This document shows, piece by piece, positions 1 to 5,751 of a stretch of DNA of 5,751 nt. The translations under genes were made by a program, and so were the position numbers. This DNA is from a virus (taxonomy: Duplodnaviria > Heunggongvirae > Uroviricota > Caudoviricetes). The stretch spans positions 1 through 5,751 of the IMG/VR virus record IMGVR_UViG_2695420564_000009; one strand, given 5' to 3'. How positions within the stretch are numbered: the first letter of the stretch is position 1; every line of letters begins with the position of its first letter. The notes beneath the pieces are model-generated. The model made no database searches. It had not been told where the DNA came from and saw only the letters and a list, made by a program, of their open reading frames with translations.

Positions 1-696
1 CTACCACCATCGAAGCGACCGAGCTATTCCAGCAGGCAGGCGTACTATTTGCACCAGGTAAACTTTCCAGTCGTAGATGGGGTAAACGTACCAACTGTGT
101 CCGCCTGGCGCAGCAGTAGTCCAGGGCTTATCGTCGGCAAAACGCTGTTTATTTAAACTGGCGATGGCGACAAAACGGTTATAGGACTCATCAGCGCGGA
201 TGCCGATCATCATCGCTGCCGGACGTTTTTGCGAAAACCAATCGGCAAATTCACGCACGAATTGTTCGAAGGTCATTCCGGGTTGATAAAACGAGAAAAA
301 TTCAGGATCGGTTATTGCGTCTTTTGGTGGCTGACGCACCCATTCAATACCCGGTTCCCAACATTGCCATTCTGGTTGATATTGGGAAAGCGAATTTTGC
401 GTTGTTAATGGCAGCGCTACCCAGTAAAACGCTTCAGTGACGTCGGCATATTGTTTCCGTAGAGACTGGACATAGTCGATGGTGTAGGTAAACTGCGCTT
501 CCCAATCGATGAATAAAATATAAATTTTTTTATTGAGTTTTCTCGCCAGTTCCGCGGTCAGATGGAGCATTAAACCAGAATCTTTACCGCCAGAAAAAGA
601 CACGCATACGCGAGGCAGGGTATTGAGTGTCCAGGTGATACGGTCTTGCGCTGCTTCCAGAATATTGAGCGGGAGAGGAATTTTATATATGGACAT
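1..696 (-). CDS. PAPS reductase-like PP-loop family protein (phosphoadenosine phosphosulfate reductase / YbdN-like), partial: C-terminus lies beyond the window start
   Basis: ORF on minus strand with ATG at 696..694 running off the window edge. Translation carries the PP-loop motif SGGKDS near the N-terminus (VSFSGGKDSG) and a PIYDW motif, both typical of the PAPS-reductase-like family. No strong Shine-Dalgarno seen upstream. Family call rests on motif recognition only. Confidence 0.8.
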   Translation of the reverse strand: MSIYKIPLPLNILEAAQDRITWTLNTLPRVCVSFSGGKDSGLMLHLTAELARKLNKKIYILFIDWEAQFTYTIDYVQSLRKQYADVTEAFYWVALPLTTQNSLSQYQPEWQCWEPGIEWVRQPPKDAITDPEFFSFYQPGMTFEQFVREFADWFSQKRPAAMMIGIRADESYNRFVAIASLNKQRFADDKPWTTAAPGGHSWYVYPIYDWKVYLVQIVRLPAGIARSLRWW

Positions 697-727
697 CTGA
701 ATATGCGCCCTGAACGTGATATGTCAA

Positions 728-1309
728 TCAGTGAGATGGTCTACTCATTATCCAGCGCGGATTGCTCGGCGTCAACGCCTTTGGCAGCGGGNNGATGTAC
801 NCAGNNNGNNGCTCAGGATACATGGCGTTAATTTCTTTAGTCCTGATAATTGCTTCAGTGAGGTGTCCATCAAAAGTCGTCATCTCGTCATCGCCGAGAA
901 GCCCGCTTGCATTGATGACCATATCCACGGTGATATTTTCATGTGTACCGAACCTGACAAGGACAGCAGCCCGCTTGTCTTCAGATAACTGATTAAAGTT
1001 AACAGTTTCTGTATCCGGTTCAGGGTCGACCGGAACAAAGGAAGCCGACTCCTCATTCCAGCGGTTTTCCTGCATATATTCGGAATCCCAGGAATCGAGA
1101 GCAGGGCGGGCCATGCCGGGTTTATCCTCGCAGACAAGAAATTTATAAGCACAGTCCTGGGCTTCCGGGTATTGTTCCAGAAATAACCAGCTAAATTTGG
1201 CTCTTGCCCGGCGTTCGTCGCCTGCTTCAATGGCAGTGGCCACAGGTTTAGCGCCTTCTGCTGTTGCCTGTTCGTCCGGAATGGCGGCGCAAATAAAGAC
1301 TTTACTCAT
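728..1309 (-). CDS. Hypothetical protein (193 codons as read); 3' end passes through ambiguous bases so the true C-terminus and stop are uncertain
   Basis: Minus-strand ORF with ATG at 1309..1307 preceded by GAGGT at about 7 nt spacing. The reading frame runs through N bases at 792..810, which appear as X in the translation. Sits immediately upstream of and co-directional with the PAPS-reductase-like gene. No family recognised. Confidence 0.55.
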   Translation of the reverse strand: MSKVFICAAIPDEQATAEGAKPVATAIEAGDERRARAKFSWLFLEQYPEAQDCAYKFLVCEDKPGMARPALDSWDSEYMQENRWNEESASFVPVDPEPDTETVNFNQLSEDKRAAVLVRFGTHENITVDMVINASGLLGDDEMTTFDGHLTEAIIRTKEINAMYPEXXXXYIXPLPKALTPSNPRWIMSRPSH

Positions 1310-1401
1310 TTTGTTTTACCTCATTACAGATTTAAGGGTGAACAAATCCCTGCCATTGCTGACATATAAAAATAAAGCCGGATATTTATTATGGGGCTGT
1401 T

Positions 1402-1593
1402 TTAAAGGCCTGCCGGGATTTCGTTATTGTTCATGCGAATAACTTTGTCGACAGGATAACAGTTCCCGGGAATTTTTTGCTCTGCCGCGGCAGTCATGCA
1501 TTCTTCCATTGAGTCATGTATGTCAATAACAAGATCAATCGGTTCACCAGAAACAAACAAAACAGTCAGAACGAGTACAAATGCCGTATTCAT
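1402..1593 (-). CDS. ydfD: Small secreted/membrane protein, YdfD-like (63 aa), reported for Qin prophage as a lysis protein
   Basis: Start chosen at the internal ATG 1593..1591 (MNTAFVLVLTVLFVSGEP...), which overlaps the dicB stop in an ATGA arrangement. Hydrophobic signal-peptide-like N-terminus. Length and position directly after dicB match the recalled 63-aa YdfD of prophage Qin. The ORF track gives a longer form starting at 1647, which lacks a good RBS. Confidence 0.65.
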   Translation of the reverse strand: MNTAFVLVLTVLFVSGEPIDLVIDIHDSMEECMTAAAEQKIPGNCYPVDKVIRMNNNEIPAGL

Positions 1594-1778
1594 TGCCTGC
1601 ATCCTGTTTGCATCAGACGTAAACGGGCCAGCATCGAAACAATGCATATTTTATTTAGCAGTTCCTGTTCGTGTTTTCTTTTATTAATGGCATCTTCAGT
1701 AAATATCTGATTGCTGATAGTGACACCAATTTCAAAACAACCTTCAGACGTATTAACGTTTGGTAATAACGTTTCCAT
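1590..1778 (-). CDS. dicB: Cell division inhibitor DicB (62 aa)
   Basis: ATG at 1778..1776 preceded by GAGGA at about 7-8 nt spacing. Translation METLLPNVNTSEGCFEIGVTISNQIFTEDAINKRKHEQELLNKICIVSMLARLRLMQTGCRQ closely matches the recalled E. coli DicB sequence, with the same 62-aa length. The ORF track shows a longer 97-aa form from 1883, which overlaps the DicF region and is unlikely. Confidence 0.85.
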   Translation of the reverse strand: METLLPNVNTSEGCFEIGVTISNQIFTEDAINKRKHEQELLNKICIVSMLARLRLMQTGCRQ

Positions 1779-1947
1779 TATCGCGTCCTCAACAATGAAT
1801 TTTGTGATGCGGTGCCTGGTGCCTCCAGGTGACGTTAACCAGTTAACAATTAACGCCGGATACAGAGAATCCACCCATAACACTGTTTTTGGTTTTAACT
1901 GTTCCGCGTGCGCTCAGCCGCATTCACCACATCACAAAATTCACTTT

Positions 1948-1990
1948 AAAAAGGGCGGCAGAGCAGTCACGGAGTAAAACTGATACCGCC
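1948..1990 (-). terminator. Intrinsic terminator-like hairpin plus U5 tract forming the 3' end of DicF
   Basis: On the minus strand GGCGG (1990..1986) pairs with CCGCC (1958..1954), followed directly by five T (1952..1948). Seen in sequence; read-through into dicB must still occur because dicB lies downstream. Confidence 0.6.
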
Positions 1991-2005
1991 AAACGTCACC
2001 AGAAA
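1953..2005 (-). ncRNA. dicF: DicF small regulatory RNA (53 nt mature form; U-tail extends to 1948), antisense regulator of ftsZ and other mRNAs
   Basis: Minus-strand sequence TTTCTGGTGACGTTTGGCGGTATCAGTTTTACTCCGTGACTGCTCTGCCGCCC followed by TTTTT matches the recalled DicF sequence and lies between ydfC-like and dicB as in Qin. Mature end coordinates are approximate and come from recall, not mapping. Confidence 0.8.
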
Positions 2006-2345
2006 ATTGATAACAGAGGGCGTTGCAGCGGGGTTGTCACTTAAGCGTATGGTCAACCTGACAACCCGGTGTCCTCAACGGGGAAGGAATAACCCCGCCA
2101 TACTTACCGCCGCGCCATTTCGCGGAGTGCCACAACCGGAAGCGCACGGTCGACGAAAATTTAACGACAGGCTATCTATGAACCAGCTACCTCGCCGTGC
2201 GCTTTCGCGTTATGGTCTGACTTTTCAGGGAAATATCCTTTCAGTAAACTGTCAGTGCCGGATGCTCACCCGTGTCCGGCACACGCACTCCACCTCACCC
2301 GTGGAGAACTCCTTAATTACCAACCTTAGCTTCGTTGGTTAGCTA

Positions 2346-2564
2346 TTAACGCGGGTATGTAATCATTCTGGCAATGCTTAATGCCGCTGCTTTTTCCAGA
2401 TTGGTGATATCCTGCTCCAGAGCGGACAGATTTTCAGCCTGCTTAGCTCTGGCTTCATTAGCCCATTTCAGATCCTGCGCTGCATTAATTTTCTGGCGCA
2501 TCCACTCATAAAGTTCATCATCGGTATAGTCTGGCGCGATGATGACGGGTTCTCGTTTCTGCAT
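2346..2564 (-). CDS. ydfC: Small coiled-coil hypothetical protein, YdfC-like (72 aa)
   Basis: ATG at 2564..2562 preceded by GAGGAA at about 6 nt spacing. Length (72 aa) and position third in the leftward operon, upstream of dicF, match recalled Qin ydfC. Function unknown. Confidence 0.7.
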   Translation of the reverse strand: MQKREPVIIAPDYTDDELYEWMRQKINAAQDLKWANEARAKQAENLSALEQDITNLEKAAALSIARMITYPR

Positions 2565-2593
2565 ACTGATTCCTCGCGGTGCTGTTTCGCTTA

Positions 2594-2722
2594 TCAGCCG
2601 TTAGATTTTGCCGAACTGGAAAGCACCTGTTTAAATTCGTTGAAGCTGTGAGCTTCTTCGCCTTCGGCAAGGCCTTCGAAGTATTCTTCGTAAGCCTTTT
2701 CCATGATTGTGTCAAAATCCAT
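2594..2722 (-). CDS. ydfB: Small acidic hypothetical protein, YdfB-like (42 aa): MDFDTIMEKAYEEYFEGLAEGEEAHSFNEFKQVLSSSAKSNG
   Basis: Not in the supplied ORF track (too short); found by hand translation of the minus strand. ATG at 2722..2720 with AGGTGA about 6 nt upstream, stop TGA at 2596..2594. Its start sits 1 nt after the ydfA-like stop (TGATATG). Length and position match recalled Qin ydfB. Confidence 0.6.
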   Translation of the reverse strand: MDFDTIMEKAYEEYFEGLAEGEEAHSFNEFKQVLSSSAKSNG

Positions 2723-2723
2723 A

Positions 2724-2879
2724 TCACTCACCTGAGTTTCTTTCCAGCCAGCGACGGGCACCATTTTCGGTTTTAAACGTTTTGCTTTTGGTATACGTCA
2801 TTGCGGTGAACGTACCGTCCTGGTTGGGGAACACGCCACATACCAGAGATTCGCTGTTGCCAAGATCGATAGTATCCAT
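2724..2879 (-). CDS. ydfA: Small hypothetical protein, YdfA-like (51 aa): MDTIDLGNSESLVCGVFPNQDGTFTAMTYTKSKTFKTENGARRWLERNSGE
   Basis: Preferred start ATG 2879..2877 with a GGGGAAATGAGG purine-rich RBS upstream, giving 51 aa as in recalled YdfA. An in-frame upstream ATG at 2960 with GAGG about 9 nt upstream would give 78 aa and cannot be excluded. First gene of the leftward operon downstream of the repressor. Confidence 0.65.
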   Translation of the reverse strand: MDTIDLGNSESLVCGVFPNQDGTFTAMTYTKSKTFKTENGARRWLERNSGE

Positions 2880-3067
2880 GCTGACCTCATTTCCCCTTAA
2901 CGCCGGGGTAGCGGAACAAAAACCTGCTGCATAGTTATTAAAGTTGAACCCTGCCGTCATGTTCTTACGCCTCGGGCTGGCTACTTAACCCCTGACCACT
3001 GCCTGGTAACTCGAAGTATTGCCCTGCATTCTGTGGGGCGGGGTGGGTTGGTATGAAAAGAAGGATA

Positions 3068-3100
3068 CCCATAGGTATTTAAAAAGTAAATACCTATGGG
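3068..3100. promoter_or_regulatory. Perfect 14-bp-arm inverted repeat CCCATAGGTATTTA-aaaag-TAAATACCTATGGG; candidate left operator overlapping an early-left promoter, or alternatively a terminator-like hairpin after the repressor gene
   Basis: Palindrome seen directly in sequence, 44 bp downstream of the repressor stop and upstream of the ydfA-like gene. The half-site resembles the CCTGTGGGTATT repeats in the repressor/cro intergenic region. On the minus strand TTTACC-17 nt-TAAATA overlaps it as a possible -35/-10 pair. Function is inferred. Confidence 0.45.
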
Positions 3101-3143
3101 TAAATTTTGCGGTGTCTTAACTGGTGACTAGTTGTTTGGTGAG

Positions 3144-3563
3144 CTATGATGCGTTTTGTGCTTTCTTTTTACGGATTTCTTCGTAGATCATATTGTAATA
3201 CTGTTTTTTCTCTTCAAGAGTTTTTAATAATTTATCCGCTTCACTTTCTGGCAGTTCGTCTAAGAGATCTAAAAAAATACGTTGTCGTGGCGTTAGAACC
3301 CTTGTTTCATAACTGGAGGCTGTGTTCGTTGATGATGAAACGATACCATCCATCCATCCCCGGGGTAACCCAAAGGACTCTTCGATAATCTCCACCATAT
3401 CATCAGCGATCCGTTTTTTTCCCTTTTTCCCCTCTGGGTACAACATTCTTGATACATAAGAAGGCTCGCGCCCGATCTTTCTGGCCACGTTAACCGCTTT
3501 ACCATCGCATTTCTCATCACGAATTTTGATGAGTTGCTGTCGTCTAAATTCATATTTGTCCAT
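3144..3563 (-). CDS. Prophage CI-type repressor (139 aa) with predicted helix-turn-helix, DicA/RacR-like role
   Basis: Minus-strand ORF diverging from the cro-like gene. HTH-like segment GKAVNVARKIGREPSYVSRML. No Shine-Dalgarno before the ATG, and a TATTAT -10-like hexamer sits 6 nt upstream, consistent with a leaderless transcript as for lambda cI from PRM. Role assigned by position and architecture. Confidence 0.75.
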   Translation of the reverse strand: MDKYEFRRQQLIKIRDEKCDGKAVNVARKIGREPSYVSRMLYPEGKKGKKRIADDMVEIIEESFGLPRGWMDGIVSSSTNTASSYETRVLTPRQRIFLDLLDELPESEADKLLKTLEEKKQYYNMIYEEIRKKKAQNAS

Positions 3564-3663
3564 AGGTAAATAATAGATGCGATTACCGCAAGGTAAACAA
3601 CCTGTGGGTATTGACTTTTGTTTACCTGTGGGTATTCTTTGCTGTGTTTACTAAGGAGTAGCT
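3564..3663. promoter_or_regulatory. Divergent promoter/operator region between the repressor and the cro-like gene (OR-like)
   Basis: Two direct copies of CCTGTGGGTATT (3601..3612 and 3625..3636), a related CCATAGGTAAAT at 3560..3571 overlapping the repressor start, and GTAAACA/TGTTTAC inverted elements. Plus-strand TTGACT (3611..3616) and TATTCT (3633..3638) with 16-nt spacing form a plausible rightward promoter. AAGGAG at 3653..3658 is the RBS for the cro-like gene. Confidence 0.55.
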
Positions 3664-3945
3664 ATGAAAGAATTAAGAATATTTCTCAATTCTCTTTCGT
3701 CAGATGAACAGCGTATGTTTGCATGCGAGTGTGGTACCAGCATCGGTTATCTAAGAAAGGCATTGAGTAAAGGTCAAGTGTTAGGGGCATCGTTATGTGT
3801 CCTTATTGAGCGAGCCAGTAATGGTGAAGTTACACGTCAGCAACTAAGGCCTTTTGATTGGATGAATATTTGGCCCGAGCTGGAAGATACCAAAACGTTA
3901 ACACAACCACTTTCTAGGAGCTTGATTCATGAAAATCAAGCATGA
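3664..3945 (+). CDS. ydaS: Cro-like HTH regulator, YdaS family (93 aa)
   Basis: Strong RBS AAGGAG 5 nt before ATG 3664. First rightward gene diverging from the repressor. Small HTH-type protein immediately followed by, and overlapping by 17 nt, a YdaT-like gene, as in the Rac prophage ydaS-ydaT arrangement. Symbol assigned by synteny and family resemblance. Confidence 0.7.
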   Translation: MKELRIFLNSLSSDEQRMFACECGTSIGYLRKALSKGQVLGASLCVLIERASNGEVTRQQLRPFDWMNIWPELEDTKTLTQPLSRSLIHENQA

Positions 3946-4354
3946 ACACATCCGCATGGCGATGAATGTCTGGGCGCATCCGGACGGCGAAAAAGTGCCG
4001 GCTGCGAAAATTACCAAAGCGTATTTCGAGCTGGGAATGACGTTCCCGGAACTGTATGACGACAGCCATCCGGAAGCCCTGGCCCGTAATACCCAGAAAA
4101 TTTTCCGTTGGCTGGATAAAGACACCCCTGATGCTGTTGAAAAAATGCAGGCTCTGTTACCGGCGATCGAAAAGGCGATGCCGCCTTTGCTGGTGGCCCG
4201 TATGCGCAGCCACAGTTCTGAATATTACCGTGAGATCGTCGAACGGAGGGATCGGCTGGTGAAGGATGTCGATGATTTTGTTGCGTCAGCGGTTGTTTTG
4301 TATGACCAGATGAATCGCGGCGGCCCGGCAGGGAATGCTGTGGTGATGCACTAA
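3929..4354 (+). CDS. ydaT: YdaT-family protein (CII-like regulator, historically annotated as toxin YdaT), 141 aa
   Basis: RBS AGGAG 8 nt before ATG 3929. N-terminus MKIKHEHI and length about 140 aa match the recalled YdaT family. Position after the cro-like gene matches lambda cII and Rac ydaT. Confidence 0.75.
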   Translation: MKIKHEHIRMAMNVWAHPDGEKVPAAKITKAYFELGMTFPELYDDSHPEALARNTQKIFRWLDKDTPDAVEKMQALLPAIEKAMPPLLVARMRSHSSEYYREIVERRDRLVKDVDDFVASAVVLYDQMNRGGPAGNAVVMH

Positions 4355-4376
4355 AAGCACGGTGTTCGGGGGTTTT

Positions 4377-5339
4377 ATGAGCAGCAAGCTTCATGGTCTT
4401 GTCTGGGAAGGGTGCGCCTTCACCGGCATGATCTTATCCAGGGTGGCGGTTATGGCCCGTCTTGCAGACTACAGCAATGACGAGGGCGTGTCATGGCCTG
4501 CCATTGAAACTATCCGGCGTCAGATCGGTGCAAGAAGTGAATCCACAGTGAAATCGGCTATTGCAGAACTGGCGAAAGAGGGCTGGCTGACGAAGGAAGA
4601 GCGTAAGGTCGGTGGGCGTAATGTAAGCAATATCTATCGGCTTAATGTGGAAAAACTCGAAGCAGCTGCGGCGGCGGCGCGTGAGTCATATAAACCGAAA
4701 AGAAAAATTAGCCCGGCAAAAAATGACCCGTTAACAGTTGACCCGTCAAATATTGACCCCTCAACGGTTGACCCGTCAAATTTTGATGGATCAACTGTTG
4801 ATAAAAAACTGCCGATTAGGGGGCCGATGATTGACCCCGATCCGTCAGTATTAAAACCTGATCCGTCAGATAAAAGATCTTCTTGTCCGGACGCTTCGCA
4901 ACCGGACCCGCAGACGGCTGAACAGGATTTTTTAACCCGACACCCTGACGCGGTTGTGTTCAGTGCGAAAAAACGCCAGTGGGGAAGTCAGGAAGATTTG
5001 GTGTGCGCACAGTGGATCTGGGGACGAATCGTGAGTCTTTACGAGCAGGCGGCCAGCTATGATGGCGAGATCACTAGACCGAAAGAACCCAACTGGACAG
5101 CATGGGCCAATGACGTTCGCACAATGCGGATGCTGGATGGCAGAACTCACAGACAAATTTGTGAAATGTTTGGGCGTCTCCAGCGGGATTCGTTCTGGGT
5201 AAAAAACATCATGAGTCCGGCAAAACTCCGGGAAAAATGGGATGAACTGGTTATCCGCCTGGGGCGTTCGCCTGCGCAGCGTTGCGTGAATCACATTTCT
5301 GAACCGGACACTGAAATTCCGCCGGGCTTCAGGGGGTAA
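4377..5339 (+). CDS. Phage replication initiation protein (lambda O-like replisome organiser) with N-terminal winged-HTH-like region, DPS-rich linker and conserved phage C-terminal domain
   Basis: Long ORF after the ydaT-like gene. Preferred start ATG 4377 with GGGGG 4 nt upstream; the ORF track starts at GTG 4362. The linker-coding region contains tandem iteron-like repeats, as in lambda O. The C-terminal part resembles the conserved phage C-terminal domain of lambdoid replication proteins (recalled, not searched). Confidence 0.8.
   Translation: MSSKLHGLVWEGCAFTGMILSRVAVMARLADYSNDEGVSWPAIETIRRQIGARSESTVKSAIAELAKEGWLTKEERKVGGRNVSNIYRLNVEKLEAAAAAARESYKPKRKISPAKNDPLTVDPSNIDPSTVDPSNFDGSTVDKKLPIRGPMIDPDPSVLKPDPSDKRSSCPDASQPDPQTAEQDFLTRHPDAVVFSAKKRQWGSQEDLVCAQWIWGRIVSLYEQAASYDGEITRPKEPNWTAWANDVRTMRMLDGRTHRQICEMFGRLQRDSFWVKNIMSPAKLREKWDELVIRLGRSPAQRCVNHISEPDTEIPPGFRG
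4723..4812. repeat. Iteron-like array: six 15-bp-periodic units of form TTGACCCGTCAA (internally palindromic), ending in an A-rich unit; candidate replication origin inside the rep gene
   Basis: Seen directly: ATGACCCGTTAACAG, TTGACCCGTCAAATA, TTGACCCCTCAACGG, TTGACCCGTCAAATT, TTGATGGATCAACTG, TTGATAAAAAACTGC from 4723 in 15-bp register. Downstream are two GATCCGTCAG copies (4839, 4860) and four GATC sites within about 90 bp. Origin function inferred by analogy with ori-lambda lying within O. Confidence 0.6.
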
Positions 5340-5379
5340 GTGTTAATTTCTGGTCATGAGGTAATTTTCAGGAGGGCTT

Positions 5380-5751
5380 GTGGCAAAAGTTTTTACACAA
5401 GAAGAGCGGGAAAAAATTAAAGGGCAGGTTGTTGAACTCGTACGCCAGAGTGGGCGCGAGACGTTACGACAACTGGAAACTAAAACTGGGGCAACAAGAT
5501 ATCTGATGAGCGTTCTCGCAAGAGAGCTGGTTGCCAGCGGCGATGTATACAACTCCGGCTACGGGTTATTCCCCTCTGAACAGGCGCGTAAGGACTGGCA
5601 AAACGCCCGCAAAAAACTCTCGAGGGCAAAGGTGAAGAAACCTGCTGTGGTTGATCCGGACCTTATCTGGTCATCACCTGACGGAGAAATACGTCGCTAC
5701 GACAGTCGCCTAAACATAATCTGTCGCGAGTGCCGGAAGAGTGAAGCCTGA
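5380..5751 (+). CDS. Hypothetical protein (123 aa), possible small DNA-binding or replication-associated protein
   Basis: GTG start at 5380 preceded by AGGAGG (5370..5375) at 4 nt spacing; stop TGA at 5749..5751. Follows the replication initiator in the same operon. No family recognised; a helix-turn-helix-like segment (RETLRQLETKTGATRYLMSVLAREL) is only suggestive. Confidence 0.6.
   Translation: MAKVFTQEEREKIKGQVVELVRQSGRETLRQLETKTGATRYLMSVLARELVASGDVYNSGYGLFPSEQARKDWQNARKKLSRAKVKKPAVVDPDLIWSSPDGEIRRYDSRLNIICRECRKSEA

Follow-up and report, generated by a model that had tools for sequence, protein, structure and literature searches.

The question raised by this locus is whether a lambdoid prophage of Escherichia coli carries its replication origin as a set of tandem repeats inside the coding sequence of its own initiator gene. 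The locus lies in a 5751 bp stretch of viral DNA, referred to here as the window (IMG/VR record IMGVR_UViG_2695420564_000009; positions 1 to 5751), and the gene, rep, encodes a replication initiator of 320 amino acids (aa) with an architecture like that of lambda O. An initial annotation of the window had pointed to an array of iterons and a cluster of GATC sites within this gene as a candidate origin. The region at 4708-4880 is probably (at a rough probability of 0.8) the replication origin of the lambdoid prophage, placed in the part of the gene that encodes the linker between the two domains of its own initiator. The element itself is real, is conserved and acts in cis as DNA, and its best explanation is an origin of the lambda type in which both the domain that recognises the origin and the kind of iteron are new. 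The parts of the gene on which this reading depends are as follows.

4377-5339, plus strand: rep, replication initiator gene (open reading frame, 320 aa)
4377-4691, plus strand: winged-helix DNA-binding domain at the N terminus, aa 1-105, presumed to recognise the origin
4708-4722, unstranded: decayed leading unit TTAGCCCGGCAA, with three mismatches to the consensus TTGACCCGTCAA
4723-4797, unstranded: iteron array of five 15-bp units at 4723, 4738, 4753, 4768 and 4783; dyad TTGA-N4-TCAA; consensus TTGACCCGTCAA
4798-4812, unstranded: half unit TTGATAAAAAAC, with the left arm TTGA only, then an A6 run at 4803-4808
4831-4869, unstranded: conserved module made up of TTGACCCC, GATCCGTCAG (4839-4848), the AT-rich spacer TATTAAAACCT and GATCCGTCAG (4860-4869); two iteron-like sites with one GATC each
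4845-4884, unstranded: least stable 40-bp stretch of the gene in a nearest-neighbour stability profile (z 1.8), a candidate weak unwinding region that includes the GATC at 4876
4872, unstranded: approximate mosaic joint, with the N-domain and repeats (origin-specificity module) to the left and an exchangeable C-terminal module to the right
4908-5270, plus strand: C-terminal domain, aa 178-298, homologous to the C-domains of lambda O and phi80 gp15 (BLASTP; AlphaFold2 pLDDT, predicted local distance difference test, 71-89)
5274-5336, plus strand: C-terminal tail, disordered, Rep residues 300-320, which contains the DnaT C-terminal motif SEPDTEIPPGFRG

Repeats in the rep gene and its homologues

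Tandem Repeats Finder identified an array of period 15/30 at 4712-4801 (period-30 score 101), in which the copies follow one another at an exact 15-bp spacing. The consensus TTGACCCGTCAA is present without change at 4738 and 4768 and with one mismatch at 4753, and the units at 4723 (ATGACCCGTTAA) and 4783 (TTGATCCATCAA) each have two mismatches, the latter if read on the minus strand. The five units occupy codons about 116-140 of rep, and the array overall codons about 116-147. Six units had been counted in the initial annotation; the 15-bp-phased array of dyads is real, but five units are clear and two decayed ones flank them (at 4708 and 4798), and the difference between six and five is thus a matter of how units are counted. 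The A-rich unit reported to follow the array corresponds to the half unit at 4798 with its A6 run, and the array does encode the repetitive DP(S/L)-rich linker described for it (NDPLT VDPSN IDPST VDPSN FDGST VDKKL ... DPDPSVLKPDPSDK). When a 26.6 kb stretch carrying a nearly identical prophage was searched for TTGACCCGTCAA with up to two mismatches, 9 matches were found against 2.25 expected, a number reached in none of 100 shuffles of that stretch. The matches cluster at the array only, and the two beyond it are in host genes.

The rep genes compared were drawn from 11 phages and from 80 loci in different Enterobacterales species, with N-domains that are 53-74% identical, and 80 near-identical viral contigs formed a further sample. 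Repeats and codons were analysed in 84 full-length genes. In every one of the 84, two to seven units of 15 bp were found immediately after the winged helix, and an A-rich unit and a two-GATC module follow them. The repeats are also carried by the isolated phages SfII, SfIV, LLS and YeP1 and by Klebsiella phages, so their absence from functional homologues, which had been named as a ground for giving up the origin, was not encountered. The peptide encoded by a unit is SDxSK in most of the genes and (I/V)DPS(N/T) in the eight nearest to the window. Within the window's subfamily, the units occur both as TTGACCCCTCAA, which is read as D-P-S, and as its reverse complement TTGAGGGGTCAA, read as E-G-S.

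Units were then defined at the protein level alone (D/E-x-S), giving 339 units from the 84 genes. The serine codon is TCA in 290 of these (86%), compared with 35 of 188 (19%) for D/E-x-S found elsewhere in the same genes (Fisher, 7e-54), and the lysine codons of the units are AAA in 238 cases and AAG in one. The codon before the aspartate has T as its third base in 85% of units, although the residue that it specifies can be any of seven (S, F, P, I, V, A or Y), and the middle codon of the units varies freely. TGA-N4-TCA is present in 78% of units. A similar pattern was seen in the module after the array, where residue-identical pairs have a codon identity of 0.89 (0.42 in the N-domains of these genes), and where the residue in several columns varies while two bases remain fixed (TCA/CCA/GCA; TCA/TTA/CAA). 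The comparison of repeat conservation with synonymous divergence that had been proposed as a check therefore came out in favour of a DNA element, with synonymous positions fixed across 84 homologues though the residues vary. The repeats are under constraint at the level of DNA, not of protein, and the fixed synonymous sites, together with units in both orientations, are as expected of a protein-binding DNA site in a tolerant coding region and not of slippage of a peptide repeat.

An AlphaFold2 model of Rep, built on 34 homologues, predicts a winged helix at residues 1-105, disorder at 108-171 (nucleotides 4698-4889), a helical C-domain at 178-298 and a disordered tail. The disordered segment coincides with the repeat interval, and as the linker is predicted to be disordered, constraint on the protein there would be weak. 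The same disorder, however, can be cited for the alternative that the repeats are a by-product of a repetitive, flexible linker of DPS or SDxSK pentapeptides, multiplied by slippage and with no function as DNA. The units keep to one frame throughout the family, and their number differs from two to seven among homologues, with deletions of single units in near-identical copies, as slippage would give. This explanation is nevertheless highly improbable, as it does not account for synonymous positions that are nearly fixed while residues vary, for reverse-complement units that encode different peptides, for repeats that track the N-domain and not the neighbours of the linker, or for the decamer GAACCAGTCA downstream of the iterons of a distant clade, which is read in two frames. 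A single stretch of DNA would hold two codes: sites for a protein to bind are written over the codons of a disordered linker, whose peptide adapts to the DNA.

The repeats are inherited with the N-terminal domain and differ where that domain differs. Units of the TTGA form make up 14 of 14 in the window's subfamily, and the CTGA form makes up 230 of 325 in the rest of the family. The same N-domain and repeats are joined to at least three unrelated C-domains, and where the window's C-domain occurs in phages with other N-domains, these repeats are missing. Three phages with other N-domains, mEp460_ev081, HannyBb and PhiR42_1, share ~90% DNA identity with the window only from position 4872 (query 1773), which places the joint between the two modules. 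More distant relatives with an HTH_36 domain (phi24B O, ZF40, Vibrio D62, Salmonella S135, Pseudomonas MD8 and Vibrio Va_PF430-3), at 32-42% N-domain identity, each carry a different dyad repeat in the same position, spaced at 17-24 bp. In the clade made up of phi24B O, ZF40, D62 and S135, the clade-specific iterons are followed by the shared decamer GAACCAGTCA, present in two copies 17 nt apart and translated in two reading frames (R-T-S-H and E-P-V-N). This decamer too is a DNA element that has been conserved, and it is the analogue in that clade of the GAYCCGTCAG module of the window family.

Other roles for the array were also considered. As a single strand, 4723-4812 is predicted to form a long imperfect hairpin (-16.9 kcal/mol; z -5.3), and homologous arrays give z values of -1.2 to -5.1. 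Such a hairpin follows from tandem dyads with units in both orientations, and is thus no separate evidence. The only Rfam match over the array was a sub-threshold one to mir-250 (21 bits, gathering score 58), which is attributable to the palindromic structure of the array. No promoter or terminator was found inside 4300-5400, and TTGAC as a -35 element was rejected because the main subfamily has CTGAC in its place. The DnaA-box pattern TTWTNCACA has two matches (4646-4654, minus strand, and 5391-5399, plus strand), both within chance expectation; the first of them, the 9-mer TTTTCCACA upstream of the array, is not conserved in homologues. A search with the IHF consensus gave no match.

The two-GATC module

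The two repeats that had been reported after the A-rich unit are the copies of GATCCGTCAG at 4839-4848 and 4860-4869, each of which begins with a GATC. The further claim of four GATC sites within about 90 bp was correct as to their number (4789, 4839, 4860 and 4876), but the first is at 4789 and not at 4788. Only two of the four are conserved; the GATC at 4789 sits in the decayed fifth unit and that at 4876 is peculiar to the window's subfamily. In the window as a whole GATC is not enriched (21 found, 21.0 expected), and the cluster is convincing only through its conservation in homologues. Of the two aspartate codons in the module, the first is GAT in all 84 genes and the second in 69 of 76, and 77 of the 84 genes have at least two GATC sites within 45 nt, where 0.14 would be expected. 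The two sites are 24 nt apart in most genes, 18 nt in the Erwinia, Edwardsiella and Morganella relatives and 21 nt in the window.

The module sites, GATCCRTCAG, differ from the iteron core by one base, and this makes binding by Rep the simplest reading of them. It is unlikely, though a good deal less so than the linker explanation for the array, that the module at 4831-4879 has been retained for something other than Rep binding, either as a site for a host factor (SeqA or Dam-dependent) or as a recombination joint at which C-modules are swapped. The module sits exactly at the mosaic joint near 4872, and GAT is invariant in it whereas the equivalent position of the iterons favours GAC over GAT (219 and 52 cases). 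A gene for a Dam-type N6-adenine methyltransferase (PF02086 or PF05869) lies directly 3' of rep in 36 of 80 loci, and the shared downstream decamer of the other HTH_36 clade is unlike the iterons of that clade, which points to a common factor. Against these stand the closeness of GAYCCGTCAG to the iteron core GACCCGTCA and the consideration that recombination alone would not fix bases. Such a role would in any case be compatible with Rep binding and origin function for the array itself.

A role for Dam or SeqA at the GATC pair is plausible. The window itself has no Dam-type methylase gene after rep, and a DUF977/LygF gene is found there instead. The 13-mers of E. coli oriC and the heptamers of the P1 plasmid oriR belong to origins that are sensitive to Dam and SeqA and conserve GATC inside origin elements. 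The element described here is like them in having conserved GATC sites in a probable origin element, as a pair 18-24 bp apart that is invariant across the family, but it differs in having two conserved sites only, which lie in repeats resembling initiator sites and within a coding region.

In lambda (TTCGTCAGAGAATTCTGGCGAA) and phi80 a palindrome lies to the right of the AT-rich region, and the module CCGTCAGAATCTGGCGG of the main family is similar to it, which suggests that the right-hand parts of these origins share ancestry. The piece corresponding to CCGTCAGAATCTGGCGG has been replaced in the window's own subfamily.

Rep and the proposed origin

The N-domain of Rep matches only HTH_36 in Pfam, with no match to PF04492 (Phage_rep_O), the family to which the N-domains of lambda O and phi80 gp15 belong. 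When a shallow profile of the Rep N-domain was compared with the lambda O N-domain using hhalign, no similarity was detected (probability 0.1); lambda O has been reported to be linked to HTH_36 by HHpred (PMC5509034), a result that was not reproduced here. The C-domain, in contrast, is 35% identical to that of lambda O (BLASTP, E 5e-26) and 36% identical to that of phi80 gp15 (E 4e-26). Rep thus differs from the strict lambda O family both in lacking a PF04492 N-domain and in having no P-type partner gene directly downstream, and it does not fit the pattern of plasmid iteron replicons (RepA, RepE and pi), which have two winged-helix domains and ~22-bp iterons outside rep.

The statement that the arrangement mirrors ori-lambda within gene O holds for the position in the gene and for the homology of the C-domain. 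As in lambda, the array lies within the initiator gene, where the N- and C-domains join, and is made up of tandem sites with internal dyad symmetry, at least three being expected and five 15-bp units (4723-4797) being present, and its position is that of the annotated iterons in lambda (O codons 117-145) and phi80. Like gene O, rep belongs to the early right operon, in which it follows cro and a cII-like gene. The differences are that the window has an HTH_36 N-domain in place of Phage_rep_O, five units of 15 bp rather than four of ~19 bp spaced at 20-24 bp, a much weaker AT-rich tract, two conserved GATC sites where lambda has none, and a rep gene without a following P gene whose product has a DnaT-like tail. 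The origin in phi80 gene 15 has the same architecture and a homologous C-domain, and the sequence to the right of its iterons, AGTATTAAAAGATCTTCGTCCG, is similar to AGTATTAAAACC...GATAAAAGATCTTCTTGTCCG in the window (4846-4890). However, its N-domain is Phage_rep_O, its iterons are of the TTCCCGAAAACGG type with a 21-bp spacing, and it has the P-like gene 14.

Type-specific repeats inside O-like genes have been treated as the origin in lambda, P22 and L, and ori-binding proteins that are only distantly related are each stated to bind different iterons in their own coding regions (PMC8022706), the gene 18 origins of P22 and L being of this kind. The origin of MD8 was annotated by analogy on the same rule (PMC8508860). 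The window shares with P22 and L the principle of type-specific repeats inside the initiator gene, but the repeats and proteins of those phages are others, and their gene 18 is paired with the DnaB-type helicase gene 12. A similar combination of domains is found in DopC, a domesticated lambda-O-like protein of Cellvibrionales and Oceanospirillales with an N-terminal HTH_36 domain and a DnaT C-terminal motif, the locus of which was reported to be without iteron-like repeats and adjoins a P-like gene, dopE (PMC5509034). The rep gene of the window, unlike dopC, has the repeats and encodes a lambda-O-like C-domain, and it has no P-like neighbour.

We infer from these sequences how Rep binding, origin firing, melting and the contributions of the tail and the GATC sites would fit together. 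On induction of the prophage, rightward early transcription from the cro side would lead to synthesis of Rep. The winged helix of Rep would bind the five close-packed dyads TTGA-N4-TCAA, 15 bp apart, and probably also the two or three iteron-like sites to the right of them (GAYCCGTCAG), giving a complex comparable to the lambda O-some. This complex would strain the moderately AT-rich segment at ~4845-4884 and cause it to open. The lambda-O-like C-domain and the DnaT-like tail would then recruit the host helicase machinery, there being no gene for a P- or DnaC-type loader after rep. The two invariant GATC sites, lying as they do in iteron-like sites, would probably make initiation sensitive to Dam methylation or SeqA.

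The tail motif is that of the host primosome protein DnaT. The last 21 residues of Rep match the DnaT C-terminal motif SEPDxxIPPGFRG (PDB chains 2ru8, 6aep and 9zbt; NCBIfam DnaT 159-179). Among 77 homologues, the tail is of the GFR type in 44, of the W..IW type in 21 and of another type in 12. A gene like lambda P or DnaC was found within 700 bp downstream in none of the 65 loci with a GFR or W..IW tail and in all 12 with other tails (Fisher, 3e-14), and no P- or DnaC-type loader gene directly follows rep in the window, where the DUF977/LygF gene stands. The text of a 2026 paper on the preprimosome does not name the residues through which the C-terminal domain of DnaT touches PriA. A loader-less lambdoid replicon may be put forward tentatively, in which the DnaT-motif tail would replace a P- or DnaC-type loader in giving access to the helicase-loading machinery of the host and the two GATC-containing iteron-like sites would also act as a Dam/SeqA switch that times or limits initiation, although it is rather doubtful that both parts hold together. 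The first part is consistent with the mutual exclusion of tail and downstream loader (65 and 12 loci), and the second with the invariant GATC sites and the Dam-type methylase gene that adjoins rep in 36 of 80 loci. Both features, a tail that stands in for a loader and a pair of GATC sites that does not vary, bear on the recruitment of host helicase by phages.

Plasmid iterons have roles in copy control and autoregulation. By the same token, the sites in rep could be bound by Rep without being an origin, serving autoregulation or copy control (as a roadblock or by handcuffing), or they may be a relic, the prophage being defective and replicating from elsewhere or not at all. Unit mutations and deletions among close copies and the weakness of the AT-rich region would agree with this, but the arrangement is retained in the isolated phages listed above, its position equals that of the proven origins of lambda and phi80, and there is no second cluster of the motif in the prophage. 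Bound sites of this kind or a relic are therefore improbable, and an origin remains the preferred reading.

Several points weigh against an origin. The sequences behind the codon counts are related, so that the counted codons are not independent, yet TCA makes up at least half of the unit serine codons in every locus. Four GATC sites in 91 nt are marginal in the window alone (P about 0.06 under random placement). The AT-rich element is weak (57-67% AT; z 1.8) and far less marked than that of lambda. With a spacing of 15 bp, or 1.4 helical turns, the units are packed more closely than those of the other origins examined (17-24 bp), and it is hard to see how several dimers would fit. Among the near-identical viral contigs, two lack one 15-bp unit and another has a 21-bp deletion that takes out one of the two GATCCGTCAG sites, and in several near-identical copies an Asp-to-Ala change (IDPST to IAPST) breaks an iteron arm, so individual copies, possibly including this one, may be decaying. 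Finally, no paper on this repeat family was found: full-text searches with the repeat sequences gave unrelated primers only, with incomplete coverage of the literature, and no description of the family was found in the literature on lambdoid, SfII/SfIV and P27 origins, the 'P27' of Kozlowska et al. having lambda-type iterons.

A probable origin has been located for a widespread replication module. It could be annotated by rule in genes for a 'helix-turn-helix domain-containing protein', in which an array of TGA-N4-TCA with 15-bp phasing, followed by GATCCRTCAG twice, would mark the origin.

Prophage context

What the window covers of this lambdoid E. coli prophage is its immunity and replication region, in which the following genes surround rep.

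3144-3563, minus strand: CI-like repressor gene
3664-3945: Cro/YdaS-like gene
3929-4354: YdaT/cII-like gene
5380 onward: DUF977/LygF gene, 3' of rep

The segment at 3100-5751 is 99.9% identical to a prophage adjoining potC in E. coli strain DA33137, in which the same 963-nt rep coding sequence has been annotated by RefSeq. A near-complete match to this segment was found in 307 of 5,426 complete E. coli genomes, ST131 strains among them. Rep was assigned to PHROG 391, 'replication initiation O-like' (E 4e-115). Members of the N-domain and repeat family are also carried by SfII and SfIV, which are serotype-converting phages of Shigella, by phages of Klebsiella, Yersinia and Citrobacter, and by prophages throughout Enterobacterales.

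The motif ACCTRTGGGTA occurs in four copies, against 0.07 expected, at 3066-3102 and 3600-3634 in the window. One pair is inverted and lies just past the end of the CI-like gene and the other is direct and lies in the cI/cro intergenic region, and the copies are probably repressor operators of the OL- and OR-like kind.

Further to the left, ambiguous bases (N) at 792-810 indicate draft-quality sequence within an exonuclease-like open reading frame (728-1309, minus strand), which matches only the first ~170 residues of phage exonuclease families. A tRNA scan of the window found none. An STnc100-like match at 1746-1955 (minus strand) was below threshold (38.7, gathering score 47), and adjoins the gene for the antisense RNA DicF at 1953-2004 (minus strand), which was identified by Rfam (RF00039) with 76.7 bits, exceeding the gathering score.

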